A stretch of 64,000 bases of DNA, taken from the NCBI GenBank assembly GCA_964016885.1, contig OZ024743.1:296980001-297044000 (forward strand). Direction: 5' to 3'. The notes beneath the pieces were generated by a model, which was given only the letters and a program-made list of their open reading frames with translations, was not told the origin of the DNA and did no database searches. The translations under genes and the position numbers were made by a program. Positions 6,480-38,717 of the stretch are shown piece after piece. Source of the DNA: Eledone cirrhosa (taxonomy: Eukaryota). How positions within the stretch are numbered: the stretch's first letter is position 1; every line of letters begins with the position of its first letter.

Positions 6480-7129
6480 TAATAATAATATTAGATAAAT
6501 ATCTAAAATAAAATAAAATAAAATAAAATAAAATAAAATAAAATAAAATAAAAATAAATAAATAAGTAAATAAATAAATAAATGTTAGAAACTTTATATA
6601 ATCAAATATCCTGGTTTGTAAATATAAGTGATATAATGTAACTTATAAATCTATAAACATATTCACTTTTCATGTTTGATTCATGTTTAGTGTCTGAAAA
6701 TACATTGTAACAAAATGACATGTCTTGTTTTGTTATTTTTTATTTGATATATCCAACAGAGATTCAGTAAAACAATTATTGGTATATTTATTTTTCAAAT
6801 GTAGGAGAGGGAACCAAATGTTTAGTGTATGGTTAATAAAAATAAAAAAAAAATAAAAAAAAAAACAGGTAAAAAAAACATGAAAGTTGAATGAATGATA
6901 AAACAATAAAAATAGACCTTTATGTGTGTGTTTAGTTATATATAAACATATATATATAAAAGAAAATAAATTATTAGATAATATACTTTATTAAATGATA
7001 AAAGTTAAAAGAAAGAAAAAATTGGAATTGTTATAAAAAATATTACTTTTAAATAAAACATTTAATATGATAACACTTTAAAGAAAAACAGAAAAAGAAA
7101 AGAAAAAACAAACATGTTTTATGATTTCA

Positions 7130-9370
7130 GTTTGATATGCTTTAATATTTAACAAGTTTGATATTTATTTTAACAATAGGCTTCAATAGATATGTTTTTT
7201 ATATATATAATATGATAGAAAAAAAATTAATAATTGTAAAAATAAGATAATATTGCTTTTCAAATTTGATTTTTTTTAAATGCGTTAAATTAAAAAAAAA
7301 GTTGATAGAGATATCAACAATGAAGATGTTATTGCTTATTTGAATATTTTCATTGAAAATCTAACCTGATATTGCTTCAAGAGAATGAGAAAAAAACAAA
7401 TTATTTTATAGTTTTATATGACAATTTAATATAAGGAGTCACTTTCCATTTTAAATTCGATCACTCCTGATATTTTCCATTAGGAACTAGACAGTCAGGC
7501 TTGTATTATATATATGAATAAGTTTTCAAGAAGAATAGTTTATTTACAAAATCTATGAGATCTATGAGATAATATTGTTTTTCATATCTCAGTATCTAGG
7601 CATTACTAAGTGAATACTCACAAGCAGTTTACAAAACCTATAAGACTATATTGTCTTTCATAACTGGTCTTCTGGGTCTAAATAAATGGGTGCTGATGAA
7701 CAGAAACAACTGTGAAATACATGTATCTATTGCTATTGTTCTGATTCTGGTGTTGCTGGGACATGATCACATCTTAAAATACTTACAGAAAGACTAAATA
7801 AATGCATGTTTATCATACATAAACATATTGTATATAGGTTCACATATGCCTTTAATTTTAAAGAAAATAAATTATGTAAACAAGCCTCAAACAGTCTGAA
7901 GAATGATATTCAATAAGAACATTGGTTTAGATATGTTAGAGTTTATCATTTGGGGTTAATGTAAAGACAGAGTTTAGTCAAACAAGCTCCAAATAGTCCT
8001 AGAACTGAAGAATAATATTTGATAAAAAATTGGAGCATTGGTTTAGATACATTATGAGTTGCCATTTGACACTGTTTAGAAACGGGTTTGTGACACACTG
8101 AAAATGGAAGGCATTTATAAGATGTTATATCCCCCAATTAGTTCAAGGACCAGAATAAATATATTCCAAAGAAATCATTTTCTTTACATTTTCATTAAAT
8201 TGTAACCCAAGTTTTATAATGGAATGTGGCTTTTATGTCACCCTGTAGTTATCAAATTTGATATCTATTTTAACAATATGTGTTTTCTTAGAAAACTGAA
8301 TAAATGGAAAAATGTGTTGGTATGCTTTTTGAATAATTGAATTGTTGTACCAAAATATGCATTAAAGTCTTTTTTTATGAATCTTATTGCTTATTTGAAT
8401 ATTTTTTAATGGAATAATCTGGTCCAATATTGCCTTAAGAGTATAAAAAACAGATAAACATATTTTATAGCTTAAGTTAATCTGAATATAGAGTGGTGCA
8501 AAAGTTATTTTCCATTTAAAATTTGAACACTTATAATTATTTCTTTAGGAGACTTGCTTGTCAAGCTTGCATTATATGTAAATAAACTTTCAACAAGAAT
8601 AGTTTGTTTATAAACTCTATAACACAATATTGTCTTACATACCTTGGCATCCGGGTATTAGTAAATGAGTGTTAGGCTGTGAAATACATGTATCCACCAC
8701 TCTTACCCTGATTCTGAGTTAGTATAACATGATCATAGTTTAAAATACTTACAGCTAGACTAAATGTATGTTTATTATACATAAACATATTGTGTATTGG
8801 TTCATATATGTTCATACATTAGTTTAAAAAAAAAAAGAATAATATTCAATATGAAATTGGAGCATTGGTGTAGATACATTTCAAGTTGTCATGGATCACT
8901 ACCTAGAAAGGAGTTCAACTGCGTAAAACTGAAAATGGAATGCATTTATGAGGTGGTATGTTCTACAATTAGATCAAAGTATTTCCCAAGGTCCCAAATA
9001 AAGATATTCTAAAGGGAAAATGTCTTTACATTTTCATTAAAAAAATGGTATTAAAACTTTAAAATGGAAAGTGAATTTTGTGTCACTCTGTAGTTATCAA
9101 ATTTGATATTTATTTTAACAATATGCTTCTATAGATATGTCCTTTTGTTTGGTTAGAAAATGAAAAAATAAAAATAAACAATAATAAATGAGTAAATTAG
9201 AATAAATAAATAAATGTAAAAATAAATTGGTATTGCTTTCCAAATTGAATTGTTGCAAAAATGTATTATAAATGATTTTGATAAAGGTATTGGTCATGAG
9301 AATTTTATTGCTTATTTGAATATTTTTCATTGAATAATTGACAGAATCTGATAAATATGTCAAACTCAAT
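7130..9370. repeat. Old tandem duplication, about 0.85-1.1 kb unit, about 2.3 copies
   Basis: Shared anchors TTTGATAT.TATTTTAACAATA (about 7157, 8257, 9102), ATTGCTTATTTGAATATTTT (7331, 8386, 9307) and CTGTGAAATACATGTATC (about 7711, 8677). Confidence 0.8.
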
Positions 9371-10004
9371 GTATAAAAAAAGGTGGTGGTGGTGGTGGTG
9401 GTGGGGGGGGGGGGAGTTATTGCTTTTGAAGTTGAGGGATGGAAAGGGAGGGGGGATAAAAATAGTGTCTTAAATGGTCAGACCAGTCAGTGTGTTAACT
9501 TTACTGATTGCCCATGAAGAACAGAGATAGTATTGGATTTTTAAAACACTTTATATATTGTATATAAAATGTTTTGATAAAGATATTTCAGCTATTTATC
9601 CCCCACATTATTGGACAGGAAAATATTATTGCTTGTATAATAGTCATGGACAAGAAAATTTATTAAGTTATTGCTTTTCGAATACTTTTGAATAAATTTC
9701 AGAAATTTCATAAATTTCATGATTTTCATAAATTATACGAAATACTTATTTCCTATGAATACAAAATGTTATTATTGCTTTTGTGAATATTTGGTTTGTA
9801 AATAGGTTTTAAAAAATTGTTGTGACTTGTTTTCTTTTTATAAGGTATAAACAAAAACATTATTGCTTTTTAGAATATGTTCATGAAATGAGTTTGAATT
9901 TGGAAGTTTTTTTTCATCAGCACATGGTGATAAAGTTTATATAGAATGACAACAGATTTTCTTTTTTTTTTAGACAATTCAGTGGAGAGAGGAAATTATT
10001 GCTT
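7251..10004 (-). promoter_or_regulatory. Cluster of 12 candidate miR-137 target sites (AAGCAAUA on the minus strand)
   Basis: Plus-strand TATTGCTT at 7251, 7330, 7370, 8385, 9231, 9306, 9418, 9627, 9669, 9773, 9861 and 9997, identical to the 5' end of miR-137; six are followed by GAATA; transcription is not shown by sequence alone. Confidence 0.6.
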
Positions 10005-10357
10005 TCTGTAATTTTATCTTAATGGGAAAAAATAAATTATTTAAACAAAATGAAATAGATGGAACATGTAGATCAACTTCATGTAGCACAGTTGTTGAAG
10101 AGAAAACATTATGGACATGTTCAAGAACAAAAGAAAAATATGAACATTTATATCAGAATATCAGAGGATTGATTGAAAATTTAAAGTGTATTAAACTTAT
10201 TTTTATTGATCTCATAAATTAGCAGCGGATCGGCATAAAAATTATTAATTTAAAATCTTAATTTGATTAACACCAATTATTCTAGTAAGAAAACCTTTGT
10301 TAACTAACTAACTGTGTATATATATATATATAGTTAGAAAAATAATATAATCCCTTA

Positions 10358-10401
<44 letters not shown>

Positions 10402-13400
10402 TAAGGGATTATATTATTTTTCCCCTTTTAACTGATATATTTGCTTATTATATTGCATACAAAATACATTTGTTTATCCTTAACTCATCTTGTTTGAGAT
10501 GAATTATAAGATATGCGATTCAATTTTATTCTAGTCTAAATGAGAAAGAAATATCTAAAATTAACTGTTTGTTAGCGTTCAGTATTCAAATTTTATTTAA
10601 CATATTTTTCCATACATTAACAATTATATGTTTAGCTTAGAGACTTTTTAATCCATGCACCATATTCAACACATTAGCATCTAGTATTTGTTTTATAACT
10701 AAATCATTGTTTAACACATGCGCACACACACATACACGCACACACACACACACACACACATACATTGTATTCAATCTATAACAAACTAATATACGCTTAA
10801 ACTATTTTTTAGCAAACAATTATAAAATCTTTTAATTCCTTAAAAAACATCACCTAATATGTCTTGGGCTGTTTAATATATCCACAATAACCAACAAATT
10901 ATTGTTTTTACATTATTAATGTTACATATTTATATTTATCTAACTTAGAATTTCCAAACAATGTGTCATATAACCTACTGTGTCATGAATAATCTCTAGG
11001 TTTATCACAAAATTAAGTCAAATCTGATCTATTTCTGCAAATCTTTGTCTATGAAGTTTACTTTTGAGATCTTACAACTCTGCATACAATGAGGCACACT
11101 ACTGTTGACACATACTATGATATTTAACTGTTTATTAATGAATTTTATTAATTTCACCCCATGAACCGTACTTTATTGTGTCGTGAAAAGAATTTCATTA
11201 TTAAAAAGTGTGTCGCCAATGTGAAAAGTTTGGAAAACCGTGGTTAAGCCACTGTTGAATCTTTAAATTTGAATAATTGCTAATTCTTACACTTAGATAA
11301 TTACAATCATATCTTTTCATTTAGCTAATCACAAACTGATAATTAAATTTGGGAAATCAATGTTCAGTCTTTATGTTTGATTTAGTGAAATACAAAACTG
11401 ATATTTGCTTTGATTTTACTCTAATCTGAGTCAGTACAGATTAACTATCCTGGCCTTGTGCCAAAAGTAGAAACAATTATTAGATCCAGTCAGTTGACTT
11501 GTATCTATTTATTTTGCTCATTTACTTGGTCTTTCTAATACATAATCTACAATATTTAGAGAATATGTTATCTAATGATCTTAGTTTTTAGCCATTAGAT
11601 CACTAATCAATATGACATTAATGTATATTCAAGTAACAGCAGTATAGAAGATTCAAGATAAAAAAGGTTTCCTCAGATTGAAAACTACTGTAATTATCAT
11701 CGAAATTTTAAACATTTTTCTTTTCCTTTAAAATAAAAATCGAACATAGTTTTTATACATATTCTCTTTTGATTTGTATTTGTTTTATGAGATATTTCAT
11801 AAGGGTTTTAAGGGTAATTAAAATTTTAGGAAGGCTAAAATGAAAATGAAAATTTGTGAACATATGAACTTTGACATAGTTTTATCAATATCAACAGGGA
11901 ACAATTAACAACAATTTTAATATTTTTTAGTGTGGTAGGGGTTATCAGAATATCTTTAAATCTCATCATATGAGAAGGGAAGTTGAATTATAACAAATGA
12001 GAAAATGTGCCAATGTTATTGAGGTAATTGTTAGAGCTTAAACAAGTTCCATACTTTTGAAGTTGTTGGCTTTTGTTTCTTTTGTAACTTGCTCATTATT
12101 TCAGTATTACATATAAAAACTGATATGAATGAAATATTCTCTGATAACAATGATGATGATGCCGGGAAAGGGGAAAAGGACAATGAGGAAGTTTATTATT
12201 ATAATGATCATCATTACCATCATCACTTTCACCAGGATAAAGCAGAAGTTATTGTTATATTATAAAGCATTTTAGATGTCGAGTTAAATTTGATCTTTCT
12301 TTTCTAATTTCTTATTGAAGATAATGTTACAAACTTGAGAGATAGGTTGCTTATACATTTTAGTTTATTAATTTAGTGAATAATTAAGAAATTATCTAAT
12401 TGATTGATAATAAAACCAAAAGGAAACCAACCTGAGTGTGCATTTTAATTGGTAGTATGATCCCTTCCTAAGTTTACAACAATATAGTTTCAACACACAC
12501 TTTAAGATCAAGAGTGTCTTGTCAAATATAGACAAGAATAAAATATCAAGTATTGTTGTTATGTAACAATCAATGTAATGTTTTGTATGATATCGGTTGA
12601 GCATCTTCCTTAGAAGACATGCTTCACTTCTGTGTTTCATTGAATAGGAATACAACAAGATTAGTTGTATGTGAAAGAATTCTTTGCCAGAGTGTTATAG
12701 TGACAATATATAGCAATAGAAAGATCATTTAATGGAAGAAGAGGAGGATAAAATGAAACCTGTAAATGCTGGTTATGAAAATGAACCATAGCAGAATAGA
12801 AAAAAAAAAAAAATAAAATAAAAATGTAAAACTATATTAGCGATATAACTGAACCACTTAGTTCATTAGATAAAGAGTTTTTTCAAATAACCTGAGTTCA
12901 CAAAATGAGGTTTTGTATCTGTCATTTTCAATTTTTGTTAAATATAATGTAAATTGATTGAACCCCTAATTAGTTCATACTGAAGAAACACAACCATGTT
13001 GAAACAGCTGTCTACAATATGAAAGGAGGAAAATATTATAGTTGAAATGTAATTAAATTAAATAAATATTAAATGAAAATAATATGGTGTAACTTACTTA
13101 TTTAATGAAAGAATACACTTTTAACAAGACTTTTATCTCTTGCAAAAACAAAATGTTTTCTTTTATATTTAAATTATTAAGTTGTTGAATATATTTCCTA
13201 AGTTATAGCAACATCTACTATCATTTTGCACCACATTTGTGACAAAGGGGAAAATGATAATGATAATGAAGATGATGATGATGATGAGCAGGAGGAGAAG
13301 GAAGAGGAGTAACAGGATGAGAATAATGTGGACAATAGCAATTATCTTTGTCTGTTGACTAGGCACACAGCCAATTTGTTTAAGTAGAGAGATGTGCAGT

Positions 13401-14494
13401 ATATTATTGGGACTTATTTGATCTATTCTGGAAAGTCGAAAGGCAAGCTCAGGTTAACTATAGTAATTTTTAAAAGAAAACTAAATATTGCAAGATATTC
13501 AGCCTGGGACTTTACCATTTCTTCCAACTGCTTTTGTAAAGTTTTCTTCTTTAAATTATGGTATGGAATATCTGCAAATAATCTTAATGATTATTTATAA
13601 ATTTAATTATTCATTTATAAACTTTATCATTAAAACTTCCAAATTTTTTTTTGAAAATGTAAACAACTTACAATGATCACAACTTGTAAAGTAAACATTT
13701 TTTATGGCTCACAGGCACAAAAAGCAAGTTGACAAATTCACATTTTCATCATAAATAGATGACTATCAAAACTATTATCAATTTGCTGACTGTTGCAGAA
13801 ACATTGTTATACATATTCAAAGAAATTCATTCTTCTTTTGTACACATTCTTACATCCCAGAAGAACAATTGAGAGGCAAATAACAGAAACCACAAAATTA
13901 AAACAAAACAAAATATCAACAAATTTCATATTCCTGAAATATATGATAAAAAATGGAATCTTATATCATAAATTATATTTGGAATATCATTTTAGAATCA
14001 TCATAATTGTTTTAGGAATGTTTTTACTTATGTAATCATCAAAATATTTAACAACTAGAATGCATTGTTATCACCCGTTAACATCTGTTCTCATGTTTTC
14101 TCATCTGACTAATTAACTGTTGGTGTTGTTTGGTAAATGACTATGCCAAGTTCATAAGGAATGATTTAATTACCAGTGCAAATTCATTAAACAATTTTTG
14201 TTATCAATTATGGCATCAGAGAACATTTTTGTATTAACAAACACTTTGGGCGATTTTTCAAGTAAAAAGAAATCATCCCCTAAATGAAGTGATTCAATGA
14301 TTGCTAGTAACTTAAAAAAATATACAGATTCTAAAATTTTCTATGAATCAAGAAAGAATAATATCAAATAATTATCAAAGACCCCCTTAAAATGTTTGAA
14401 ACATTTTAATGATAGCTTAAGGAATGTCATCAAGAATTCTCTTTTAAGTATTAAATGTTTTGTGACTAAGGATTTTTTTCTGTCTTGTAGGTAA

Positions 14495-14716
14495 CCCTTT
14501 CATGACCATATTTATAATGAAATATACTCTTTCAATTAATGCAGAATTTTGGATGATTTACTCAAATGATTATTTCTTTCCTAATATAATAACTTAAAAT
14601 ATGGTTCTTGTATAGTATCATGTTGGAATATATAAATTCATATAGGAATCGTTTGAAATGGGTGGTATTCTTTCATAGAACTAGGTCTGGTTTTGGCCAG
14701 GTTGGTATCAAAAGGG
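14495..14716. mobile_element. Older piggyBac-type MITE, family 2
   Basis: TAA-CCCTTT...GGTATCAAAAGGG-TTAA; related ends at about 2371 and 33347, reversed copies near 42740-43005 and 57580-57800. Confidence 0.6.
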
Positions 14717-17763: not shown

Positions 17764-18393
17764 TTAACCATTTGATCCAAGAGAAGGATCTGATGTTGTT
17801 CCAATATATCCATAGTTAACATGCTCTTTAACACCCAGATCCTCTTGTGAGATCTTCAGTGCTGGGTTAATTTTACCATTCATTTCTAGTGTTGGCGTGA
17901 TTGCTGTCAATTCATTGGCTGGTTCTCTCATGGCAAGGGCGATAACTTCATCTGGTATATTGACAATGCACATAAAAACATCATAACGCCGAGGTAGATG
18001 GGCATTCTCAAAGAGATATTTGAACACATATGAGACACCTGCTATTGTTCCAAGAGAAAGAAACATCGACAAGGTTTTGAATGGAAACATTTGAAGCTTT
18101 TCCTCCTCATCATAGAAAGGATAAAATATGATGGGTTCGATAAAAAGTGTGGGTTCCCCTCCTGAAAGGCGCATGAATATGCCAACTATATAGCCAGCTA
18201 ACGATCCATAGGTGTTTGCCCATTCTAAATACACGACAGTCACAAGCTGTGGGAACAATATTACATAGACAAAATCGGAGCAAAGATACCAAAGATCATA
18301 CACCGATGTCACCTTTAATGCCATCGCAGTTGCAAGAACACCAACGCCAAATATAGCTATACGCATCACCCACAGGATTTCTTGGTCAGATGC
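17764..18393 (-). CDS. SLC5A7: CHT1 coding exon 8 (last), 630 nt including stop
   Basis: Acceptor TCTTTTCCAG|; [18 protein letters not shown]...[17 protein letters not shown]...RLSGGEP...FPFKTLSM...; TAA at 17766-17764; the eight exons sum to 1713 nt, 570 aa plus stop. Confidence 0.96.
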
Positions 18394-19269
18394 CTGGAAA
18401 AGACAAAAAAAACAGCATTTATAAAATCTGCAGAAGATTTATGAAACTTTAACATAAAATCTAATATGATAAAGATATTGGCAAGAAAGTTTGTTAAAGG
18501 AATAGAGATGACACAGTCACAGAGATGACACAGAAATTAGTACTGAAGATTTGAATAGTAATAACTTAGTAACAACAATAGTAGGAAAAATCTATAAGAT
18601 TTGGGATGTGTGGAATATAGAAAATAGTTACTGATTGAAAATAATGGGGGAATATGTATTGAGAACCTGAAGGGAAAAAATGATTAAATAAAGAAAAGGT
18701 ATAAAAATATTTCATTTAAATATAATGTTTATATTTTGTTTTTCTCTTATTCACAAACAGCTGCAACAATCTAGCTAGGTTTAAAACAAAACTACAGTTT
18801 AAACATACATTAAACATACATTAAAAAAACACAGTTTAAACATACATTAAAAAAATCTTTTAGTAGACTACCTAAAAAAAAGAACGTCACAGTGAAACAT
18901 GAAAATGCTCCAATATATTTGCTGAATGTGTTAAAGGGTTTTCAACCTTAAATCTTATTCAACTCTTTATTACAATTTCTTTCCTCCTTAACCATTTGCA
19001 TAAAGGTAGCAGCATTTACATGTGACCTAAACATTTTATGCAAGACTTCACAAAGGAAGCAGCATCTACATGTGACCTAGATATCTTATGCAAGACCTGC
19101 ATGGCTTTCAGAAGCCCAAACCTTAAATATATCTTCCAACAAAGACATTGCAATCTAAACTTCTTCAACAACACTGATATATAGTTACTGATAACACCAC
19201 TTTCTTGATCATGATATACAGTGTAATTACATCACACATGTATAACATTTATATAAAAGATTTCTTTTT

Positions 19270-20310
19270 ATTTAGTAGGTCTGGAGGAACCCAGGGGTAG
19301 ACTACGAGCAAGACGGTTGGATAACATTTATGTTCTCAATTGGTCTTGCTTGGGGATTCAGCTGGATCTATAGGAGACAGATGCTTTTGATAGGACCTGC
19401 TGGAAAACATGCTTCAAGTCTCTGCCCCCATGACCCTCCCAAGAAAAAGAAGAAAAAAGGAGGAGGAGGGGAATTACGAAATGCATGTAGCTGCTACAGG
19501 CTCTCCAAAATCAGAGATTTTGTTTAAATGGCTGCAAGTTGACTCCTGTAGGAAAGAGATAAATAGAGAGGGATGAGTTTAGAGATTTGTACAGGACCTT
19601 AGGGTGACAAGGAGGTGACATGACATGGGGGTTGAGAGAAGGAGAGACAAGTGAGTCAGGAATATCTGAGCGGTAGTAGTAGTATGAAGCCTGTCAGCTT
19701 CAAGAAGCCTGAGACCATGGTAGTAAATGTAGAAGAGACAGAGAGAGGTGACAGTACATCTGAGTGCCAGAGGATGTAATGTCATTTAATTAAGTGGGTT
19801 TTCTCTGGACACAGTTTAAGATATTAGTGTGTGCAACAATAGCACAAACCTAGATATAGAAACAGTTCTTTATTTTTGGTTTCCCCTAACTAGATTTAAA
19901 TCTCAATAACTAGAAAATACTCCAGCTTAACTAATTAACAACTTCTATAGAGAAAAAATGAAACCTTTACTGGAGCATTACTAAAATATCTGGAATGGTA
20001 TTGCTGCAATGCATAAAAATTATCTTACTTTGCTTCCCAGATTAGATCATTTGATTTATTGACAAAACCCCTCTCACTAACAAATGTGTTATTCCTTCTC
20101 TTTTTCTCTTCTACTACTATGACTTTTGTTCATTTGAGCTAGCAAGCTGTATACCTACTTCAAATTCACCTGATGCAGCTGTATCTCCTCTTCTACCTCT
20201 TACCTTACCTACATCATCTCCCAAATACTGTACTAAAGGCATTACCCAATCTTTCTTCTTCATTACTGTAACCCTCTGAAATTTCTTCCCTGACTATATT
20301 TCTTTTTACA
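19270..20310. mobile_element. Decayed CR1/Jockey-like LINE fragments
   Basis: Minus-strand LALRCTVTSLCLFYIYYHG resembles a CR1-group RT C-terminus; 19270-19450 is repeated at about 43320-43530. Confidence 0.4.
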
Positions 20311-20342
20311 GAGAGCAACCTACAGAAATTGAAGCTTTATAG

Positions 20343-20679
20343 CAGAGTGGGTACTATCCCACCCCTTGGAGAGGGGTGATCGAGAAGGTCCAGGGTGCGC
20401 TGTGGCCTAAGGAGGCAGTGGGAGCAGTAGAGATGATATAATAGTATATAAATGATACATATGATATATGAATATAGTAAAATAAAAAAAATATATTTAT
20501 TTATACATAGTATATATTATATTTTTTATTACATATAAATTAACAATTTTATTTATAATATATTATTTACAATTTTCCTGTAGGTAGGTCTCTCTGGATA
20601 TAGGGTTGGAGTGGGTGGGTAGTGAGGGTATTATGTGGCCGTGAGCGGGGTGGTGGCTCGAAAAGTTTGAGAACCTCTG
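20343..20679. mobile_element. hAT-type MITE
   Basis: CAGAG... and ...GTTTGAGAACCTCTG ends; 8-bp TSD CTTTATAG/CTTTATAT (7 of 8 match). Confidence 0.6.
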
Positions 20680-20717
20680 CTTTATATAAACTGTATTAAC
20701 ATCATAACATTATCAGT

Positions 20718-20820
20718 GCCGAGGTTAACCCTGCCTTTCATCCTTACGGGGTCGATAAAATAAAGTACCAGTAATGTACTGGGTAATTGCTGGCCTTGTG
20801 CCAAATGTAGAAACAATTAT
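20718..20820 (+). mobile_element. SINE family A, 5'-truncated, inverted relative to 20875-21061
   Basis: GCCGAGGTTAAC...GGGGTCGATAAAATAAAGTACCAGT...GTAGAAACAATTAT. Confidence 0.8.
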
Positions 20821-20874
20821 CAGTCTATAAGAGCCTGTAGTGGTCGTAGTGACTGACATCCTGCTTACTACAAA

Positions 20875-21061
20875 ATAATTATTTCTACTTTTGGCACAAG
20901 GCCAGCAATTATCGCAGTGTATTACTGGTACTTTATTTTATCGGCCCCGTAAGGATGAAAGACAAAGTTAACCTCAGCGGGATTTGAACTCAGACCATAA
21001 AGGGCCGTAACTCTTCACTGCAAAGCATGGCATCAGACCCTCTACCGATACTGCCAATCCA
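20875..21061 (-). mobile_element. SINE family A, full length
   Basis: Near-identical to 6298-6479 and 28587-28771. Confidence 0.8.
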
Positions 21062-21411
21062 CAAAATAATAAAACAATAAGACACAGGCATGACACTTCA
21101 CAGCCATATGGTTTTGAGTTCTATTGCACCTTGGGAGTGAATTTAGTAGATAAAACTCTGTAATACTGTAAAACAGTTGATGTTAGGAAGCATATCAAGT
21201 CATAGAAGCTATGTTAAAATGGAACAACAAATAATCCCTTGATCAGTCAAATTTTTGAGGACTATGCATTATTTTGAATAAAACACTAACTATAATGACC
21301 TGTCCAACCAATGTCAGCAGGAAAAGCAGACATAAAATAATGATGACTCATGAGCCAGTAATATCTTATCCATTCAGTCATCTAAAAAAGGTTAATAAGA
21401 AAACTACTTAC

Positions 21412-21623
21412 TTTTTGGCGAAAGATTAGCTTATATACATTCCGAGCAAACATGGAAGCTGCTGAGAGAATAGAAGAATCTGCCGAAGACATGACAGCAG
21501 CAGATATAGCTCCCAAACCGAAAAATGAAACGAAATCAGGGCACATATACTGCAGACAGAGAGGCAAGACAAGTTTTAGGTTGTTTCCTTCTGGAGCATG
21601 TCCATATTCAGTCTGGTTCCAGT
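21412..21623 (-). CDS. SLC5A7: CHT1 coding exon 7, 212 nt
   Basis: Acceptor TTTCTTTCAG|; DWNQTEYG...[52 protein letters not shown], with the NQT glycosylation sequon and the [10 protein letters not shown] motif; donor |GTAAGT. Confidence 0.96.
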
Positions 21624-21675
21624 CTGAAAGAAAAGAAAAAACATTAAATAGGATAAATTATTATTGCTTATTTGT

Positions 21676-21758
<83 letters not shown>

Positions 21759-21842
21759 AAAGGTAAACAGAAATAAGAACACAATCGGTACAGTATATGG
21801 AAGGTATATATTAGGTTAACACTTGATATAGCAGGAAGAGGG

Positions 21843-21877
21843 TTTTAACATTTCGGATGCAAGTCCTTCGTCAGAAG
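21843..21877 (-). ncRNA. Degenerate minimal hammerhead motif, probably a Penelope pLTR remnant
   Basis: Minus strand CTT-CTGACGA-A-GGA(CTTGCA)TCC-GAAA-TGT-TA-AAA; near a (TA)n tract; stems I and III are decayed. Confidence 0.5.
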
Positions 21878-21969
21878 AAAGAATGAAAAATAAAATAGAT
21901 TAAGGGGACGGGCAGGATGGAATTGGAAAAAATGTCTTTAGATAAAAATAATAGGTCCATTCATGTTGA

Positions 21970-22245
21970 CTTGGTACCACAACATCCAGTCCAAACTAAA
22001 GAGGTCGTGTAGCCGTCACGACAAAATAGCATCCAGTCCACGCTGTAAAGTGGTCGTGTAGGAGACATGGTAAAAAGGCTCCCAGTCCACACTATAAATG
22101 TGTTTAGTGTTAGGAAGGGCATCCAGCCATAGAAAATCTGCCAGATATAGTCCTATATGAGCGAGACATGGTTACCCGATTAATCTTGTCTCAAGTGGGA
22201 CAATTCCCATCTAACCCATGCTAGCATGGAAAATAGATGTTAAAC

Positions 22246-22287
<42 letters not shown>

Positions 22288-22288
22288 A
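21970..22288 (+). mobile_element. SINE 3' part with about 42-bp internal subrepeats and an RTE-like tail
   Basis: CATCCAGTCCA.ACT.TAAAG.GGTCGTGTAG three times, TTAGGAAGGGCATCCAGCC, CCATGCTAGCATGGAAAA and (GAT)n; similar copies at 29800-29975, 40885-41175, 52770-53105 (-) and 63530-63845 (-). Confidence 0.7.
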
Positions 22289-22886
22289 TATGTATATATA
22301 TATTGTTTACAATTTATGTTGCATGGTTTACCAGTGGGTAGATCTGATCATTCCAGTTAGCAAACTATGATATAATAAATTAAAGCACTCAATGTTATAC
22401 AAATCATCCATTGTAGATCTGGTATCTCATGGTTGGTGCAGAGACCAAGTTAAATATTTATTTAAAAGACAACAGAAGGCAGGACTCAAAATATTCTTTT
22501 AATATTGCAAAATAACAATATTCATTTCTATGGCCTGGTTACATCATCAGATCATGACATAATGAAGTGTTATATATATATATTGAATATGCTGAGGAAT
22601 ATGCGACCAAAAAATCAATGGTAGAAGGGGTTGGTTTAAATTTTGGGTCAATATTTTGATCATTTTCATCAACTTCAAATTCTACGTAAATAAGGTTTAG
22701 ATTTTTGCCCATTTCTCAGACATAAAATAGTGGGGTCAGCTTATATTCGAATATATATGTGAAAAAATAGACATTAAAGGGTGATGATATATATATATAT
22801 ATATATTATTTGTGTATAGTCGTAGCTATGGTGCTTCCGTAGACAGTATGCCAAAATTAGCACTCGATATTCATCAGAGTAGAGTG

Positions 22887-23004
22887 TATATATTATCAAG
22901 AAAACGAAAAATCAGTGATGCATCTGGACTTAGTTTATTTCGTGAAACATTTGTAACAAGAAATAAACTAAGTCCAGATGCATCACTGATTTTTCGTTTT
23001 CTTG

Positions 23005-23014
<10 letters not shown>
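22887..23014. repeat. Perfect inverted repeat, 55-bp arms and 18-nt spacer
   Basis: TATATATTATCAAGAAAACG...TTTATTTC / GAAATAAAC...CTTGATAATATATA, running into (TA)n. Confidence 0.92.
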
Positions 23015-23057
<43 letters not shown>

Positions 23058-23404
23058 GTATCATTATCATCATCGTTTTTTCATCCGCTTTTCCATGCTT
23101 GCTTGGGTTGGATGGGTCCTTCTTAGCATGGCATCTCTCCACACATTGCTATCCTTTGCAATAGCCTCTGTGAGTTTCAGTGATTTGAGGTTAGCTCTCA
23201 CAACCTTTGCCCAGGTCTTTCTTGGTCTACTTCTACCACAACCTCCTTCCACTGGTATTTCCTGACACTTCGTCACCTATTGATTATTGTCCATGCACAT
23301 CAGATGTCGAAGCCAATGCAGTCTTCTCTCCTGCACACTACCTCAAATTTCTCTTATATCCAGCTTCTCCTTCAACTCATCCAAGCTCTACTACTTTCTC
23401 ACAC

Positions 23405-23405
<1 letters not shown>
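23058..23405 (-). mobile_element. RTE LINE 3' fragment
   Basis: KCQEIPVEGGCGRSRPRKTWAKVVRANL...WRDAML; CAAGCATGGAAAA plus (GAT)n tail. Confidence 0.8.
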
Positions 23406-23447
<42 letters not shown>

Positions 23448-23651
23448 CGTTTCTGAATTTGTTTAGCAAGATTCTTTATCTGAAAACGTGGGTTGAAACC
23501 GATATTGTTATACTTTGGGAGGGTCATGTTGCCAATAAGAAACACACGCACCAGTTGCTTTCACTTCAATTTATTATAATAAATTTATAAATTTAGCAAT
23601 TTATAAATTTCTGGTTGGTTGGTTCCACAACCAGATGGTTGTTTATATATT

Positions 23652-23694
23652 GTCAAAGTTCTTTCGTCACACATTCTGTGACCTCTTCAGTGAC
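23652..23694 (-). ncRNA. Second copy of the hammerhead motif, sense to the CHT1 pre-mRNA
   Basis: Exact reverse complement of 27752-27794 within the inverted arm. Confidence 0.75.
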
Positions 23695-24359
23695 TGGGGA
23701 TTCTTTTCTTTGTTTTTGTGCCTCTCCTTTGTTCTGTCCTACGCCATCTTGTTTCTGTGTGTGTGTTGTGTGCTCAGTCTGCGCATGCGCCACATCCGGG
23801 TGTCTGTGTGTGTTTGTATTCGTTTATTTATTTGTTTATTTACATGTTACAGGTTGGTTGTTTGTTCTATGTGCGTGTGTGTTTTCATTTTGTCCTTAAT
23901 TGTAAGTTGTGATGTTGCTGTTCCACTCATGTTTTCTATTTAATTTTGGTTGTAATTCTTTTATGTTTATTGCCTCTGTGATTTGTCTAAACATTACGTC
24001 TTTTCTGTGTGTAGATTCTATTTTTATTTCTATGTTCTCTAATTTACCCTTATGTTCTATTTTAGCATGTTGGTAGAGCACAGATGATTCTTTACTATCT
24101 TGAAGGTCTCGCCAGTGTTCATTTATCCGTTCCCCTACACTACGAGCTGTCTCACCTATGTACACTATATTTTTGTCTCTACATTGTCCTTCAGTACATC
24201 TTATGCTATATACTACATTTCTAGTTTTACAGTTAATATGGGGGCTTAATTTACAGGTTATACATTTCTTATCTATACAGGGGGGTCTTTGAAAAGGGTA
24301 TGTCTTGCTAATAAGTGTTTTTACAGAGGTACCTGGTCTTTCTACTATCTTAAAGTATC

Positions 24360-27300
24360 TTGATTACTTTAGAGAATACCAATAGATATCCCGACAAAAT
24401 TGACGGTATAAATATGGCCGACATCTCATTAACTGATGAGTTCAACAACAACAACACAAATATATACGGCAACACTATGGTCGACTCTGATGAATTATTT
24501 GTATTACAACTGCCACCTAAGTATGCGACATTCAAGAAGGTAAATATAATTAGTTGTTTGTCAGAAATAGAAAAATCATTTACAAAATTACGTTGGAGCC
24601 TCAAACACAAAAACAAAAACAAAAGTAACAACACACGCACACACATATACAACACACATCCCAACAACAACAGACACACACACAAACAACAATAACAACA
24701 ACACACACATCAACAATAATATCATACACAGAAACAACAGACACGCAGACACAAACAACAATAATAACACACACAACAATAACAACACACACAACAATAA
24801 TAACACACACGGAGACAACAACAACAACACACATCAACAACAGCACACATCAACAACAACAACAACACACACACATTCAATGCCTCTCACCACCACCACA
24901 ATCTTAACAAACACACAGACACAGAAAACAGGTAATGAAAGTAGCACAGAAATAAGGGAAGGTAATAGGATTGAAAGGAGAAGGGAGACTATGGACAGAG
25001 AAAATAACCAAGACGAACACACAGACACATAAAATAGAGTAGATAATAACAATGAGCCAGATGAAAGAGACAGGAGTAATAATGAGAGACATAGAAACAA
25101 CCATGAGGCTGTTGATGGAAATAGAAATAGAAACAACACAACTAACAATAACAATAGCACTAGTACACATAAAGCAGCAGCCTGGAACTCTACTTTTTAT
25201 AATCCCTCCGATAAGTCGTTCGACCTGCGACGAGTCCACGCCACGACTTTACCTTTTAACAAACGCACACAATTGCCGTCGCAGGTCGATGAACAAACAG
25301 AAGCACAATTTAGTATAGCTAGATGTAAACTTAGAAATATTATAGAACAGTATAGCAAGAAGCATAATAGAATGGAGGCCCAGCAACTGAGAGAAAAACC
25401 TGCAAATGGCTTGTGTAAGCTCATGCAGCGCTCGCGTAATGGAGAGATAGCATGCTTTCCAACAGACAAGTTTGGCAGAATGTCGGTTGACAGTCTGCCA
25501 AACTACATCCAGGAAATGCAACCCCACATCACTAACACAAGAGAAGTAACACCACAAGAGCATGAGGATAGAGAAAAAGCCTTCAATGCCCATATGGTGA
25601 TGTGGACGAATATAATGCAGCCCCCAACAAAAGGACTGCCAACAACTTCCAGGCCTGGAACAATGACGTGCCAGCGTTGTATGGGCTTCGAAAAGACCAT
25701 AAAACGGGCAGTGACCCTGTCACGGGACCACCAACACGGCCAGTCTGTGGAGCTAACATTGCTAGTAACTACAGACTGTCCTACTTCCTCTCCCTGATCA
25801 TACGCCCCATCATTGAAATGTCCCCAGATGTATGTGGCAGCACGGAGGACCTCCTCAGACGAATCGGCGAGAGTAACCGATCTAGGGACCTAACAAACTG
25901 CATAATAGGAAGTATGGATGTTGTGTCCCTGTATCCATCTATTGACGTGGATTTTGCTGTGGAGAAATGCGTAGAAATGATCAGTGAGAGCAATGTTGAG
26001 TTCCGTGGGATTGATACCAGTGAGCTGGGACTCCTACTTAAACTTAATAATTACCTAGACACATATGACCTTAGCAACCTGTGCTCTACAAGACCAGCAA
26101 GAGGCAGACCATCTCAATGGCCAAGAAAACCCACACAGATAGATGGAACGGGTGGACCAGAGCCATACGGACACCCGAAAACCACGATGAACTAAAGAAA
26201 ATGATTGCACATGCGGTGGGGGCCAGCATAAAATTAACCCTTAAGGAACATATGTTCAAATTTAATGGAAAAACATATGCCAAAGAGGAAGGAGCAGCCA
26301 TTGGTGTTAGCATTGCAGGCGACATAGCTAACTTATTCATGGTATGGTGGGACAGTAGACTTAAACTTAAACTTAAAGAACAATTAGAAGACTCCTTAAC
26401 CCTGATAATGTACTCCCGCTACGTTGATGATATAAACATCGTAGTTAAAACACCCCCACTAGAGAACAGTCAGGAATTATAGAAAAACACAATGGAAAGC
26501 ATCCAGCAAATAGCTAACTCCATCCACCAGAGTATTAGAGTTACTATAGACTACCCAAGTAAACACCCCAACCATCGATTACCTGTACTAGACACAGAGC
26601 TCTGGTTAGATACCATTAATAACAAAAAACAAATCCTCCATTCCCATTATGCCAAACCCATGACTTCCAAATATCTGATCCACCGAAACTCAGCTGTTTC
26701 GGACCATACCAAAATCAACATACTGATTGCGGATTTGGTACGGGTGATGAGAAATGTGTCCTGCATGTGCAACCCCGAAGAACTAGAGAGACACATACAA
26801 CACTTCATCCACCGTATGCAGTTCTCTGGTTACAATCAGAGAGATAGAATCAGAGTGTATAGAGGAGCCAGAACCAAATGGGAAAAAAATGGTAAATAAT
26901 GACACAAATGGGACCTGCCCCTTGTATAGGAACAAATTTTGGAATAGAATAGAAAGAACTAGGAATAAGGCTAATAGATAAACTCATGGTATAATAGCAA
27001 TAAATACCAGAGTGTAATGTTCATCGATACAACCCCTAGAGGTGAATTAGCTTACAAATATAGAAGGGCCCTAGATAAACATAAACTCAATATTAAGATA
27101 GTAGAAAGACCAGGTACCTCCGTAAAAACACTTATTAGCAAGACATACCCTTTTCAAAGACCCCCCTGTATAGATAAGAAATGTATAACCTGTAAATTAA
27201 GCCCCCATATTAACTGTAAAACTAGAAATGTAGTATATAGCATAAGATGTACTGAAGGACAATGTAGAGACAAAAATATAGTGTACATAGGTGAGACAGC

Positions 27301-27550
27301 TCGTAGTGTAGGGGAACGGATAAATGAACACTGGCGAGACCTTCAAGATAGTAAAGAATCATCTGTGCTCTACCAACATGCTAAAATAGAACATAAGGGT
27401 AAATTAGAGAACATAGAAATAAAAATAGAATCTACACACAGAAAAGACGTAATGTTTAGACAAATCACAGAGGCAATAAACATAAAAGAATTACAACCAA
27501 AATTAAATAGAAAACATGAGTGGAACAGCAACATCACAACTTACAATTAA
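24360..27550 (+). pseudogene. Disrupted RT plus GIY-YIG ORF of the Penelope-like element
   Basis: Split over ORFs 24360-24695, 25273-, 25602-26195, 26081-26482, 26492-26899 and 27017-27550 by frameshifts and stops; AAC/ACAC low-complexity stretch at about 24600-25160. Confidence 0.85.
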
Positions 27551-27751
27551 GGACAAAATGAAAACACACACGCACATAGAACAAACAACCAACCTGTAAC
27601 ATGTAAATAAACAAATAAATAAACGAATACAAACACACACAGACACCCGGATGTGGCGCATGCGCAGACTGAGCACACAACACACACACAGAAACAAGAT
27701 GGCGTAGGACAGAACAAAGGAGAGGCACAAAAACAAAGAAAAGAATCCCCA

Positions 27752-27794
27752 GTCACTGAAGAGGTCACAGAATGTGTGACGAAAGAACTTTGAC
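27752..27794 (+). ncRNA. Minimal type I hammerhead ribozyme motif in the Penelope pseudo-LTR
   Basis: GTCA-CTGAAGA-G-GTCACA(GAATG)TGTGAC-GAAA-G(AA)C-TT-TGAC: stem I GTCA/TGAC, 6-bp stem II, 2-bp stem III; minimal hammerheads are known from PLE pLTRs. Confidence 0.75.
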
Positions 27795-27936
27795 AATATA
27801 TAAACAACCATCTGGTTGTGGAACCAACCAACCGGAAATTTATAAATTGCTAAATTTATAAATTTATTATAATAAATTGAAGTGAAAGCAACTGGTGCGT
27901 GTGTTTCTTATTGGCAACATGACCCTCCCAAAGTAT

Positions 27937-27974
<38 letters not shown>

Positions 27975-28031
27975 TTATACACATTGTAGCCATGAAGCTA
28001 CATACATCAGTGACTGAAGTTCCATGCTTAA

Positions 28032-28246
28032 CCCTTTAGTTTTCAAACCGGCCAAACGCGGCCAGAATTCTCTACCTCTTTCTGTTGAAACTGGCTGTAA
28101 CTGGTTTCTCAAACCGATGTTAAGGTATTGTTTTCAAAATAAATACTTTCAAAATCTCATAGATTCGATATTATGTGAGATTATTATGTGAGGTAAAGCC
28201 TTTACCATTAAAATAGTATATATAAAATAATGTGAATGCTAAAGGG
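28032..28246. mobile_element. piggyBac-type MITE, family 1, copy 1
   Basis: TTAA-CCCTTTAG...CTAAAGGG-TTAA (TIRs plus TTAA TSD); internal sequence similar to the copies at 36612 and 49968. Confidence 0.85.
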
Positions 28247-28366
28247 TTAAGGGCATGGAATTTAAGGCACCTTGAGTCCTTTAGAATATCACATACAAGG
28301 CATGATTTTTTTTGTTAGATAACATTTATATATTAGGAAGTCCTTTTGTGAAAGATTTGTCTTTAC

Positions 28367-28496
28367 CTGTGGAGGCAGCAACAGCACCAAAAAGAATAGC
28401 TGGGAGAGCCATAATGATGCATCCAAAAGCTGCAATATATGACAGCATTTTTGCTTTAAATGCAGACTTGGATGATAGCACACGTTGGAAATATGC
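28367..28496 (-). CDS. SLC5A7: CHT1 coding exon 6, 130 nt
   Basis: Acceptor TTTTCTAG|; [43 protein letters not shown]; donor CAG|GTAAAG, phase 1. Confidence 0.95.
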
Positions 28497-28586
28497 CTAG
28501 AAAATAGAAGAGAAATAAACATTAGTTACAAGTTTTATGAAGAAAGTAACACTTAGTATATGATTACTACATAACATATATATAAA

Positions 28587-28771
28587 ATAATTGTTTTTAC
28601 TTTTGGCACAAGGCCACCAATTATCCCAGTACATTACTGGTACTTTATTCTATCGACCCCGTAAGGATGAAAGGCAAAGTTAACCTCGGCGGGATTTGAA
28701 CTCAGACCGTAAAGGGACGTAACTATGCTGGAAAGGATGGCGTCCGACTCTCTACCGATACTGCCAATCCA
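28587..28771 (-). mobile_element. SINE family A, full length
   Basis: Same body and head as the other family A copies. Confidence 0.8.
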
Positions 28772-29476
28772 CCGGACCTTTAGTGGCCATGATCATAATT
28801 TCAAGTTCACTTACCATGCCAGCATAGGTTTGATGGGTTGTGACAGCAAGCCCATTGCAGAGGCGGGTGGGGTGGGGGAATACTAGATAGCACTTCCCCT
28901 CACACTTATGGTATCATGTTATTCTGAAACTCCACCTTAAGCCACATACTCTCCAACACCAAAGTTTGATAACAGACCTGTGCCATGGTCCTAAATGAGG
29001 TCCCTCCATCCTGTTTAATCTCAGATTGTGACAAACTGTCTAGCCCAAGCCAGCATGGAAAGTGAATGTAACATGAAAATGATGATGATGATGATGATGA
29101 ATACAACTAATGTTTTATGTATGTATATATGTATGTATATATATATGTATGTATATATATATATGTACGTATATATGTATGTATGTATATAAGTATGTTA
29201 TCTCTTTCTCTTAATTTCGAGTATGTTTTTTTTGACCGGCCACCTTCCTGGTGGCAAGGTTGTAAAAGTATGTATGTATATATGTATGTATATATGTATG
29301 TGTGTATGTATGTATGCATGTATGTATATTATTTTAATTCATTCATGTATGTATGGATCTGTAGCTCCTCTCCTGATACAGTTGTAGGGGCACTCATAGT
29401 GACATACAGCATGTTTTGGACATTTAAATCTGGTGGAGCCCATCTCTTCTCCATGCCTGAACACAGCTGGTTTCTT

Positions 29477-29524
<48 letters not shown>

Positions 29525-30901
29525 TTGACCCTAGCATTGGACTGGTATTTTTTTTATCAACCTTGCAAGTATGAAAGGCAAAGTTGACCATGGCAGGTTT
29601 TAACAAAGAGTGCAGAGAGCTAGAACAAGTACCATGAAGCAGTTTATCTGACATTTTAATGACGCAGCCAATTTACTGCTTTAGATGGGGTAGACATAGG
29701 CTTCATAAGTTCATAAGCCATAGAGAAGGCAACCCATCAAAGAGAGCAGTCATTCTGAATAAAAACTGATAAGGGTAGAGAAGACCCTTTAGTTCGGTAA
29801 GAGAACCTCATTAGTGCTGGTGGTATGAATAATGCGCCCAGTCCATGCTGTAAAGAGGTTGGTGACAAGAAGGGTATCCAGCCAGTAAAACCTTGCCAAA
29901 ACCATGCATCATCATCAACATCATGTCCAACCCATGCAAGCATGGAACAACAGACGTAAAATGATGATGATTAAATACATATATAAGGGAAAATTGGTAG
30001 CTTTTTGAACAGACTTCAATAATTATCTATATTAAGCAAAGCCACACAGTAACAAATACATTTTATCTACACAATATAAGACTAGATGAGTGGGTGACTT
30101 GACAGAGTTGTTAGAGTGCAGTATTTATCCCAGCCCTTTATATCAACTTTGCATGTTTCCCCTTTAAGGGGGGGGGGGGTCACTAAAATAATGGACTAAA
30201 TCATGGTGGTGGATTGGCAGAATTATTAGAACATTGGAAAAGATGGACAAATGCTTTGTGGTATTTGTTTTAGCTCCTTATATTCTGAGCTCAAATAGTG
30301 TTGTGGATGACTTTATTGGTAGACTTACTCTACCACCCAGTTTAACTTGGTCCTTGGTGTGCACTCTGTTGCAATTATTCAGACTTGGTCTTCATGAGGA
30401 TACTTTATTCTCTCTTTCCCACCAGTCTAAAAGACCCTGGAGAGGATCAGAAGTACAAATAGATACAAGACTTATGGCACTGTTATTAATCCAATTTGTT
30501 GTGATACTGAACAAGGTTGACAGGATTTAGACAAGATATATTAAGTAAGCTATGGTGGTTATCATCAATGCGTCACCAAAATTGGTACATCAGCAGAATT
30601 AGTAGAGCGTTGGATGAAATGCTGTTGTGGTATTCAAATCCAGCTGGGGACAACTTTTCCTTTCATCCTTTCAGAAGTGATAAAATAAAGTACAAGGGTC
30701 GATATAATCAACTTTCCCTTCTCCCCAAATTGCTGGCCTTGTGCCTAAATTGGAAGCCATTATTACATCAATGAGACACCATTCCCATAGCTACAAGCAA
30801 TGGTGACACACCATTTGTTCCTTTGCAGAACAATGAAAGCTGATAACCAGTGCAGTCACTTATTTCTGCCCAGGGACTGTTGTTATTGATATTTTACATT
30901 G

Positions 30902-32130
30902 ATACAAAGCCTTACATACAAGGTCTTACATACAAGGAATACATACAAAGTCTTACATACAAGGTCTTATATACAAGGTCTTACATACAAGATCATATAT
31001 ATACAAGATCTTACACACAAGGTCTTACATACAAGGTCTTACATACACTGTCTTACATACAAGGTTTTACATACAAGGTCTTACATACAAGGTCTTACAT
31101 ACAATCTCTTACATACAAAGTCTTACATACAAGGTTTTACAAACAAGGTCTTACACAACAAGGTCTTACATACAAGGTTTTACATACAATGTCTTACATA
31201 CAAGGTTTTAAATACGAGGTCTTACATACAAGGTCTTACACAGATACAAGGTCATAGATATAAGGTTTTACATACATACAATGTCTAAGATATAAAGTGT
31301 TAAATAGATACAAGGTCATACATAAATACAAGGTCATGCATGTATACAAGGTCATACATTTATACAAGGTCATACATTTATACAAGGTTCATGTATACAA
31401 GTTCATGTATGTATGCATGGTCATACATTTATACAAGGTCATACATTATACTAGGTCATACATGTATATAAGGCCATACATATATAGAAGGTCTTAGATA
31501 TAAGGTCTTACATAGATGCAGAGAAAAAAATGGTCTTACATAGATATTAGTTCTAAAATATAGATCTCAAATAGAGAGTCTAAGATACAAAATCTTAGAT
31601 TATAAAAGTTCATACATGAATACAAACTCTTACATAGGCTCAAGGTCATGCATATAAGGTCTAAGATACAAAGTTTTAGACAGATTCAAGATTTTAGACA
31701 AATACAAGGTCATACATACAAAGTCTAAAATACAAGGTTTTAGATAGATACAAGGTTTTAGACAATTACAAGGTCATACATAAAATGTCTTAGATACAAT
31801 GTCTTAGACAAATACAAGGTCATACATACAAAGTCTAAAATACAAGGTTTTAGATAGATACAAGGTCTTAGACAATTACAAGGTCATACATAAAATGTCT
31901 TAGATACAAGGTCTTAGACAAATACAAGGTCATACATACAAGGTCATACATACAATATCTAAGATGCAAAGTCTTAGACAAATATAAGGTCATACATACA
32001 ATGTTTAAGATACATGGTCTTAGATACAAGGTCATACATACAATGTTTAAGATACAAGGTCTTAGACAAATACAAGGTGATACATACAAGGTTTTAGACA
32101 TATACAATGTATTAGATACAATGTCTAAGG
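30902..32130. repeat. 16-bp-based minisatellite (TACAAGGTCTTACATA) with diverging sub-arrays
   Basis: Read directly; accounts for the YKVLHTRSYIQGLT ORFs. Confidence 0.9.
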
Positions 32131-32223
32131 TACAAAATATGAAGTGTCATTAGCTAAAATACATGTTTAAAGTAAAAAGAATGTCAGTGTGTAGTTAAAA
32201 TGAAAATAAAAGAGTTGTCTTAC

Positions 32224-33347: not shown

Positions 33348-33408
33348 TTAAAAAATTGAGTAAACTCTATCATATAATAACAATTAAAAAATGCATACAA
33401 TTACTTAC

Positions 33409-38715: not shown

Positions 38716-38717
38716 TT

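Follow-up and report, generated by a model that had tools for sequence, protein, structure and literature searches.

The rate of acetylcholine synthesis is limited by high-affinity choline uptake, and the microRNA (miRNA) miR-137 is, to our knowledge, a neural miRNA of deep conservation, of whose old targets little is known. The closest described systems come from other miRNAs. In the fly, VAChT and ChAT reporters were repressed by miR-190, and ChT was named as a predicted target (PMC10413644). Fly miR-7 gates the translation of VGAT by cell type, and the three miR-7 8mers in the 522-nt VGAT 3' untranslated region (3'UTR) were called the fly-genome maximum for this miRNA (bioRxiv 10.1101/2025.09.05.674572). 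The vertebrate ONECUT2 3'UTR has been proposed to be both a target and a competitor of miR-9 (PMC10356556), and among RNAs with many sites for one miRNA, CDR1as holds 71 sites for miR-7, Sry 16 for miR-138 and circ-ZNF91 24 for miR-23 (PMC4165365). Here we analyzed a stretch of 64,000 nt (C4:296980001-297044000, hereafter the window) of the 3.0-Gb genome of the octopod Eledone cirrhosa. It harbors on its minus strand the gene of the choline transporter CHT1 (SLC5A7) and, 7.8-10.5 kb past the CHT1 stop codon, a cluster of 12 miR-137 8mer sites. A single invertebrate transcript with 12 8mers for one miRNA would have four times the number called the genome maximum for fly miR-7.

A first-pass annotation of this DNA, made from the letters alone, had reported 12 copies of the octamer TATTGCTT in 7251..10004, all on one strand, and about three elsewhere. 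Every one of its positions proved to be exact. The plus strand of the window contains 15 copies, the 12 clustered ones and three outside (1017, 21662, 50906), and the minus strand contains one. For comparison, 644 kb of background DNA of the same genome were used (window positions 20001-64000 together with 20 stretches to the left of the window and 40 spaced ones). This DNA contains 27 copies on both strands, from which 0.058 copies are expected per 2754 nt. Comparison with dinucleotide-shuffled controls, which the annotation had proposed, was carried out at the level of the region and yielded a mean of 0.119 and a maximum of two copies (1000 shuffles of 7219-10010). The Poisson probability is about 3e-24 for 12 sites and about 2e-17 for the nine sites that are independent (see below). 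In a 533-kb genome sample with masked tandem repeats, the TATTGCTT cluster ranks first among 8-mers that are not of low complexity (P 2e-21); the runner-up comprises seven copies (P 2.5e-13). The density alone is not unique in the genome, as a minisatellite at C1:13665476-13672733, made up of 42/47-nt units with TATTGCTT in each unit, holds many copies. If transcribed on the opposite strand, it would give more than 100 miR-137 8mers without 3' pairing. Of the 100 genome-wide matches listed for a site-pair pattern, 99 fall in this minisatellite.

A single mir-137 gene was identified in the genome (C27:679189-679260; match to RF00694 with 75 bits, cut-off 56.7), the 3' arm of which reads (U)UAUUGCUUGAGAAUACACGUA. 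The mir-190 gene resides on the same contig and strand (C27:1444025), 0.76 Mb apart. Octopus vulgaris Ovu-Mir-137-v1_3p carries A at position 2, and miR-137 is broadly expressed in neuronal tissues of O. vulgaris (PMC9699675, rows of tables S4 and S5). Because of this A, the guide was taken to start with UAUUGCUU, its 5' end coming from the O. vulgaris table row and not from the species under study. With this start all 12 motifs are miR-137 8mer sites on the minus strand; if the guide began one base earlier, nine of the 12 would remain 8mers. It also fits that in 7145-17763 the eighth base is T in 12 of 13 copies of TATTGCT, vs 28 of 127 in the background. The sites are given below with their matches to guide nucleotides; lineages and units refer to a tandem duplication described further on.

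7251..7258, minus: miR-137 8mer; lineage A, unit 1
7329..7346, minus: miR-137 8mer (7330-7337), lineage B, also matching nt 11-15; 18 nt shared without a change by all three units
7370..7387, minus: miR-137 8mer with match to nt 10-14; lineage C, previous site 40 nt away
7728..7734, minus: additional miR-137 7mer-A1 site
8321..8435, minus: decayed sites at 8321 and 8428, representing lineages A and C in unit 2
8384..8401, minus: miR-137 8mer (8385-8392) with match to nt 11-15; lineage B, unit 2
9231..9238, minus: miR-137 8mer; lineage A, unit 3
9305..9322, minus: miR-137 8mer (9306-9313) with match to nt 11-15; lineage B, unit 3
9418..9425, minus: miR-137 8mer; unique flanks
9627..9634, minus: miR-137 8mer; unique flanks, sole site also pairing nt 9
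9669..9685, minus: miR-137 8mer with match to nt 11-16; duplex predicted to be the strongest (-16.3 kcal/mol), 9627 lying 42 nt away
9746..9762, minus: degenerate site with broken seed, match to nt 11-16 kept (guide match)
9773..9789, minus: miR-137 8mer with match to nt 11-15 (guide match)
9861..9877, minus: miR-137 8mer with match to nt 10-15 (guide match)
9997..10004, minus: miR-137 8mer, seed only

The sequence GAATA, corresponding to guide nt 11-15, follows the 8mer at a distance of 2-5 nt at six of the 12 sites, and at none of 28 background 8mers or 127 background 7mers. Among the independent sites it is present at four of nine (binomial P ~1e-4). A seventh site matches guide nt 10-14. 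Altogether, guide nt 10/11-15/16 are matched at seven of the 12 sites with one to three extra target bases in between, the loop before GAATA measuring 3-4 nt in the target vs 2 nt in the guide. Nucleotide 9 is paired at one site and nt 9-10 at none of the 12, and the longest 3' match covers 5-6 nt at nt 10/11-15/16, without any in-register match to nt 17-22. Seed pairing combined with 3'-supplementary pairing across a small target bulge gives tight binding without slicing or miRNA decay, and a trigger of target-directed miRNA degradation needs extensive pairing to the 3' end of the guide. As far as the sequence tells, the site anatomy fits repression sites, not slicing or decay-trigger sites; the latter were rejected since the 3' match comprises only 5-6 nt and nt 17-22 are unpaired. 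The pattern TTATTGCTTWN{2,3}GAATA, which was chosen after seeing the cluster and for which genome-wide counts may be lower bounds, has at least 44 matches in the genome, six of which reside in the cluster, and no other two lie within 0.8 Mb. Thus, with the cognate gene, a 3' supplementary match at half of the sites and the RNA-like coverage presented below, the case for miR-137 8mers is stronger than the annotation had stated it. A cluster of mir-137 genes was also considered and rejected, as 76-nt folds gave -1.8 to -14.9 kcal/mol without a precursor-like stem, vs -20.6 for the real precursor, and Rfam revealed no mir-137 in the window. On the minus strand of 7189..9140 there are, in addition, three miR-190 7mer-m8 matches (7189, 7930, 9134), the first and last of which are duplicates. 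Two independent ones of three, with 0.8 expected, are not above chance.

Part of the cluster has arisen by an old tandem duplication of about 1 kb.

7113..9380: old tandem duplication, units starting near 7113, 8208 and 9058, about 2.3 copies, 79-86% aligned identity

Three ancestral sites gave rise to the six perfect sites at 7251-9306 and to the near-misses 8321 and 8428 (lineage A, 7251/8321/9231; lineage B, 7330/8385/9306; lineage C, 7370/8428). The first six perfect sites therefore count as three, and there are nine independent sites in all. In lineage B, 18 nt are identical in all three units, the mean column identity of which is 71%. Of the near-misses already pointed out in the annotation, 8321 and 8428 turned out to be decayed duplicate copies, and 9746 has a broken seed but retained the match to nt 11-16. 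Its view that the six sites at 9418-9997 possess unrelated flanks does not wholly apply, as 9669, 9773 and 9861 have GAATA, guide nt 11-15, in common 3-4 nt past the 8mer; the flanks of 9418 and 9627 are unique. The locus would record the strengthening of a target by point gains and duplication of a UTR end, with selective decay of some copies. In a second octopod (organism B, run X5), 8928-10091 is present at the depth of single-copy DNA. A contig of organism B joins window position 7556 to 8588; this hints that the species lacks one of the 1-kb units, from which the duplication could be dated.

Evidence for transcription was obtained from run X4, which comprises 87.8 Mb of contigs. Its library type is not on record, and its RNA nature was deduced from a depth step and gradient. 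X4 contains 0.92 of the words of 7000-10300, and its contigs, which give no strand information, were placed on 6600-15310. The relevant features are:

7164..7169, minus: AAUAAA, candidate poly(A) signal, presumptive cleavage near 7145
7219..14628, presumably minus: stretch covered by five X4 contigs
17764..18394, minus: last coding exon of CHT1 with stop, 96-97% identical to Octopus and Argonauta CHT1
17764..50522, minus: coding span of CHT1 (SLC5A7), 8 exons, stop at 17764

The contig depths were 59 at 7219-9152 (a 2193-nt contig), 24.9 at 9423-10331, 18.4 at 10411-10716, 26.5 at 10772-11477 and 12.6 at 11456-14628. Outside they dropped to 0.61 in the bin 6891-7181, 2.5 at 6600-6795 and 2.4 at 15015-15202. 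As a gauge of expression level, contig depth is poor. At the edge near 7200 the depth of X4 changes abruptly from 59 to 0.6, while that of run X1 stays even at 8-9.5. We take X4 to be RNA, and the sharp edge together with the depth falling towards CHT1 to mark the 3' end of a polyadenylated molecule of the minus strand. The AAUAAA has an intact duplicate at 9109-9114 and is mutated in unit 2 of the duplication. No run listed for the region is recorded as RNA, a fact that speaks neither for nor against transcription, and run X6 (RAD-seq) contributed repeat reads only.

To place the sites in a wider context, metagenome contigs were scanned with the last CHT1 exon, which is 80-88% identical to the other cephalopod-like proteins tested. 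Among 47 loci the exon was located in 25, and the stop was readable in 24, 13 of which make up one annelid-like clade with Capitella, Lamellibrachia and Paralvinella proteins as best named matches. In the 35.9 kb past the stops of this clade there are 20 miR-137 7/8mers in sense and one in antisense orientation, with 6.1 expected; as the loci are related, the 20 sense sites are not independent events. All five clade loci that extend more than 2.5 kb past the stop (L144, L155, L158, L160 and L172, two of them 90% alike and the others 46-55% when aligned) keep two sites that are separated by 34-42 nt and lie between +2.3 and +3.3 kb. The first site of this pair also matches guide nt 9 and 11-16 in three of the loci. 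The pair accounts for two of about 11 blocks of 9-15 nt common to the five loci, which have the look of a conserved 3'UTR. An unanchored alignment missed the miR-137 blocks; an alignment-free word count found each of them once and in the same order. In L144 the miR-137 7mer-m8 occurs seven times vs 0.8 expected and ranks third of 5355 7-mers, suggesting a second, independent amplification of miR-137 sites. About nine further conserved blocks of 9-15 nt lie in the first 4.1 kb past the stop of the five loci, some of which we take to resemble seed matches of the miR-87, miR-2 and miR-71 families, as candidates only. The octopus and worm sites cannot be aligned, and their likeness may go back to shared ancestry or to convergence. 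From these sequence comparisons an ancient link between miR-137 and CHT1 appears likely, and the sites, if they work, point to a miR-137 target common to two phyla.

Taken together, the 12 sites probably belong to a hyper-targeted long 3'UTR of CHT1, on which miR-137-loaded Argonaute would act without slicing and thereby limit choline uptake. This reading builds on the mir-137 gene, the guide matches, the site anatomy, the coverage and the annelid-like sites, and it adds as expectations that the RNA is of the minus strand, ends at about 7145-7219 and is continuous with the CHT1 stop, and that repression takes place. The sites would then be located in the distal third of a 3'UTR of approximately 10.6 kb on a long isoform. 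Strong repression of the CHT1 mRNA, presumably by deadenylation and translational block rather than by slicing or miRNA decay, would lower choline uptake and hence acetylcholine synthesis. By analogy with fly miR-190 acting on VAChT and ChAT and with miR-7 acting on VGAT, the cluster may serve as a gate that keeps the transporter protein off or low in miR-137-rich neurons transcribing CHT1. As to its history, an old miR-137-CHT1 link may have been followed in octopods by a rise in site number through point gains and the 1-kb duplication, which would have copied three sites and the poly(A) signal. If the sites work, they offer a direct, mutable handle on the post-transcriptional gating of cholinergic output or identity in cephalopods.

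Several points weigh against this interpretation. The presumed 3'UTR of about 10.6 kb exceeds by far the median length of 350-380 nt given for octopus (PMC9699675). The library type of X4 is not documented and its contigs cannot show the minus strand. X4 coverage was placed only up to 15310, so that the join to the CHT1 stop across 15311-17763, a stretch rich in long microsatellites, is assumed. The contig edge at 7219 does not reach the cleavage point predicted by the AAUAAA at 7164-7169, some 70 nt being missing, and the depth gradient over five contigs has a Spearman coefficient of -0.7 (P 0.19). At 15015-15202 the depth of 2.4 equals that outside (2.5) vs 6.3 from an exponential fit. In lineages A and C, decay has affected two of the five copies. 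Outside the annelid-like clade, the other 11 loci (one of them with 9.9 kb downstream) displayed no excess, with four sense and four antisense sites in 25.3 kb and 4.1 expected. Seven 7-mers taken from other annelid blocks were tested, and the octopus region is enriched for none of them. The octopus VAChT gene has a single miR-137 7mer-A1 site, 1.4 kb past its stop.

The annotation had left open whether the sites belong to CHT1 mRNA or to a separate RNA, possibly a circle like CDR1as. A separate polyadenylated long non-coding RNA (lncRNA) of the minus strand, about 7.5-8 kb in length, that begins at about 14600-15000 or is cut from the CHT1 3'UTR and buffers miR-137, appears unlikely. The return of the X4 depth to background by 15015-15202 would be explained by it, the longest minus-strand open reading frame (ORF) starting with ATG in 7145-15300 has 82 amino acids, and central mismatches at every site would avoid slicing. 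However, the drop in depth is within about threefold of the 3'-bias fit and lies beside long AT microsatellites, and 12 sites are far fewer than the 71 of CDR1as (PMC4165365). Moreover, the CHT1 3'UTR is favored over a separate RNA because annelid-like CHT1 keeps sense-strand miR-137 sites past its stop, at 2.3-3.3 kb and amid 3'UTR-like blocks, which tie them to CHT1 mRNA. A circular sponge generated by back-splicing is most improbable. Twelve seed sites without central pairing do recall sponges of the CDR1as type, and on the minus strand a weak acceptor-like AAG with a pyrimidine tract of 78% occurs at 10019, the first miR-137 site following 15 nt later. However, the X4 contig 9423-10331 crosses 10019 unspliced, gradient coverage runs on to 14628, more than 4 kb past the cluster, and 6900-7250 contains no GT(A/G)AG donor. 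No back-splice over the cluster was found among the 15 of 365 joints listed, although X4 may be poly(A)-selected and miss circles.

Since the contigs lack strand information and an AG directly precedes the contig start at 7219, a lncRNA of the plus strand was also considered, the motifs of which would mimic the miR-137 guide and shield sites in other cholinergic mRNAs. A precedent is fly Gul, which adjoins Gad1, contains three matches with the guide of miR-7 and frees VGAT (bioRxiv 10.1101/2025.09.05.674572). We hold this to be highly improbable. In the stretches compared (40 kb around VAChT and the DNA after ChAT), the longest match between cluster and target site was 11-14 nt vs 22 uninterrupted nt in Gul, and a Gul-like partner was not found there. 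The variable loop of 3-4 nt before GAATA is predicted by pairing to the guide, not to a target, the annelid-like motif is in target orientation on the strand of CHT1, and as an acceptor the AG at 7217-7218 is poor, having 53% pyrimidine vs 89% for an ELAPOR acceptor. Very unlikely, too, is an eroded short tandem repeat or an array bound by an RNA- or DNA-binding protein, resembling miR-137 sites by chance. The cluster is partly duplicated, two copies have decayed and the minisatellite on C1 repeats the same 8mer, but Tandem Repeats Finder detected no array over the sites, two separate retained blocks match the guide in the right order and spacing, and sites for the same guide are conserved past CHT1 in another phylum. 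The option of a CHT1 3'UTR offered by the annotation is preferred, and its CDR1as-like circle is not supported in view of the run-on coverage and of the searches for donors at 6900-7250 and for back-splices among the joints listed.

We also inspected other cholinergic genes of the octopus. VAChT is a single-exon ORF (C12:41163550-41165430), 160 kb downstream of which an acyltransferase gene lies on the same strand. It is called ChAT by synteny; a PDB search with its first exon did not separate ChAT from carnitine acyltransferases. Two sense miR-137 8mers are situated 14.0 and 15.8 kb past the presumed ChAT stop (C12:41511270-41511285 and 41513092), and none was found in the 30 kb beyond them. 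The site at C12:41511270-41511285 pairs with guide nt 1-9 and 11-18 with a single bulge (-23.2 kcal/mol) and has the same core as the conserved annelid CHT1 site; judged by its pairing, it is a candidate decay-trigger or very strong site. Its pattern has at least 56 matches genome-wide, the mir-137 gene included, and the odds of such a match in a chosen 20-kb strand are about 2e-4 before allowing for the after-the-fact choice of the pattern and for counts that are lower bounds. Four miR-190 7mer-m8 matches, recalling the fly, are located 1.1-2.8 kb past the ChAT stop (L125:3403-5154), and one miR-190 8mer 1.5 kb past VAChT (L131:5965). Three of the four ChAT-side matches are in an AT/AC-repeat-like context and could be due to chance. 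Tandem C2H2 zinc-finger genes on the minus strand follow from about 29 kb past the ChAT stop.

The next gene to the left of the cluster is ELAPOR2 on the plus strand. Its stop (C4:296959441) is 27.8 kb before 7219, and a cluster belonging to ELAPOR2 was rejected for this reason. Adjacent to the cluster, a 15-nt minisatellite of 57 copies (5366-6226) creates long spurious ORFs on both strands. Intron 6 of CHT1 contains a broken retroelement (23500-27900), presumably Penelope-like, the frames of which resemble reverse transcriptase and GIY-YIG and the 3' part of which is duplicated (23896-24363 and 26978-27550). Two near-identical tRNA-like matches at 41187-41244 and 53510-53573, just above the Rfam cut-off, are probably heads of tRNA-derived short interspersed elements (SINEs).

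No miR-137 sites in CHT1, and no such octopus targets, were found in the literature covered, most subscription journals lying outside it. In its accessible text and supplement parts PMC9699675 does not mention choline, but its data files S1-S4 may list such octopus sites. The passages of PMC10413644 contain no occurrence of miR-137, and the available text of PMC6108476, a screen of the human genome only, lacks the name as well. We tentatively raise the possibility, which we rate somewhat below an even chance, that in lophotrochozoans miR-137 has served since ancient times to brake the synthesis of acetylcholine, acting on CHT1 in annelids and molluscs and on ChAT via the near-complementary site. 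Octopods would have made a 12-site switch of it by site gains and by duplicating the end of a 10-kb 3'UTR, and cephalopod transmitter identity would be set post-transcriptionally, as by miR-190 in flies.

Compared with the known systems, the octopus locus would resemble fly miR-190 in that a neuronal miRNA acts via the 3'UTRs of acetylcholine-pathway genes. It differs in the miRNA and in having 12 8mers vs three sites in the ChAT UTR, and function was shown in the fly, whereas the octopus case is known from sequence (PMC10413644). With VGAT it would have in common a transmitter transporter mRNA with unusually many 8mers for one neural miRNA (bioRxiv 10.1101/2025.09.05.674572), but there three sites reside in 522 nt, and here 12 in 2.75 kb, about 8-10 kb past the stop. 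CDR1as/ciRS-7, circular Sry and circ-ZNF91 likewise concentrate numerous seed sites of a single miRNA within a small region, but they are circular, whereas the octopus region has fewer sites, no sign of circularity and an RNA that is likely that of a coding gene (PMC4165365). ONECUT2 has a 14,575-nt 3'UTR with up to 26 miR-9 sites, 13 of them highly conserved; it encodes a vertebrate transcription factor and is regulated by another miRNA, whereas the octopus gene encodes a transporter and has its sites, half of them predicted to be 3'-paired, probably in the distal third (PMC10356556). The octopus cluster is real. Its mode of control would be like that of miR-190 on fly cholinergic genes and of miR-7 on VGAT, and its presumed architecture is like that of the ONECUT2 3'UTR.

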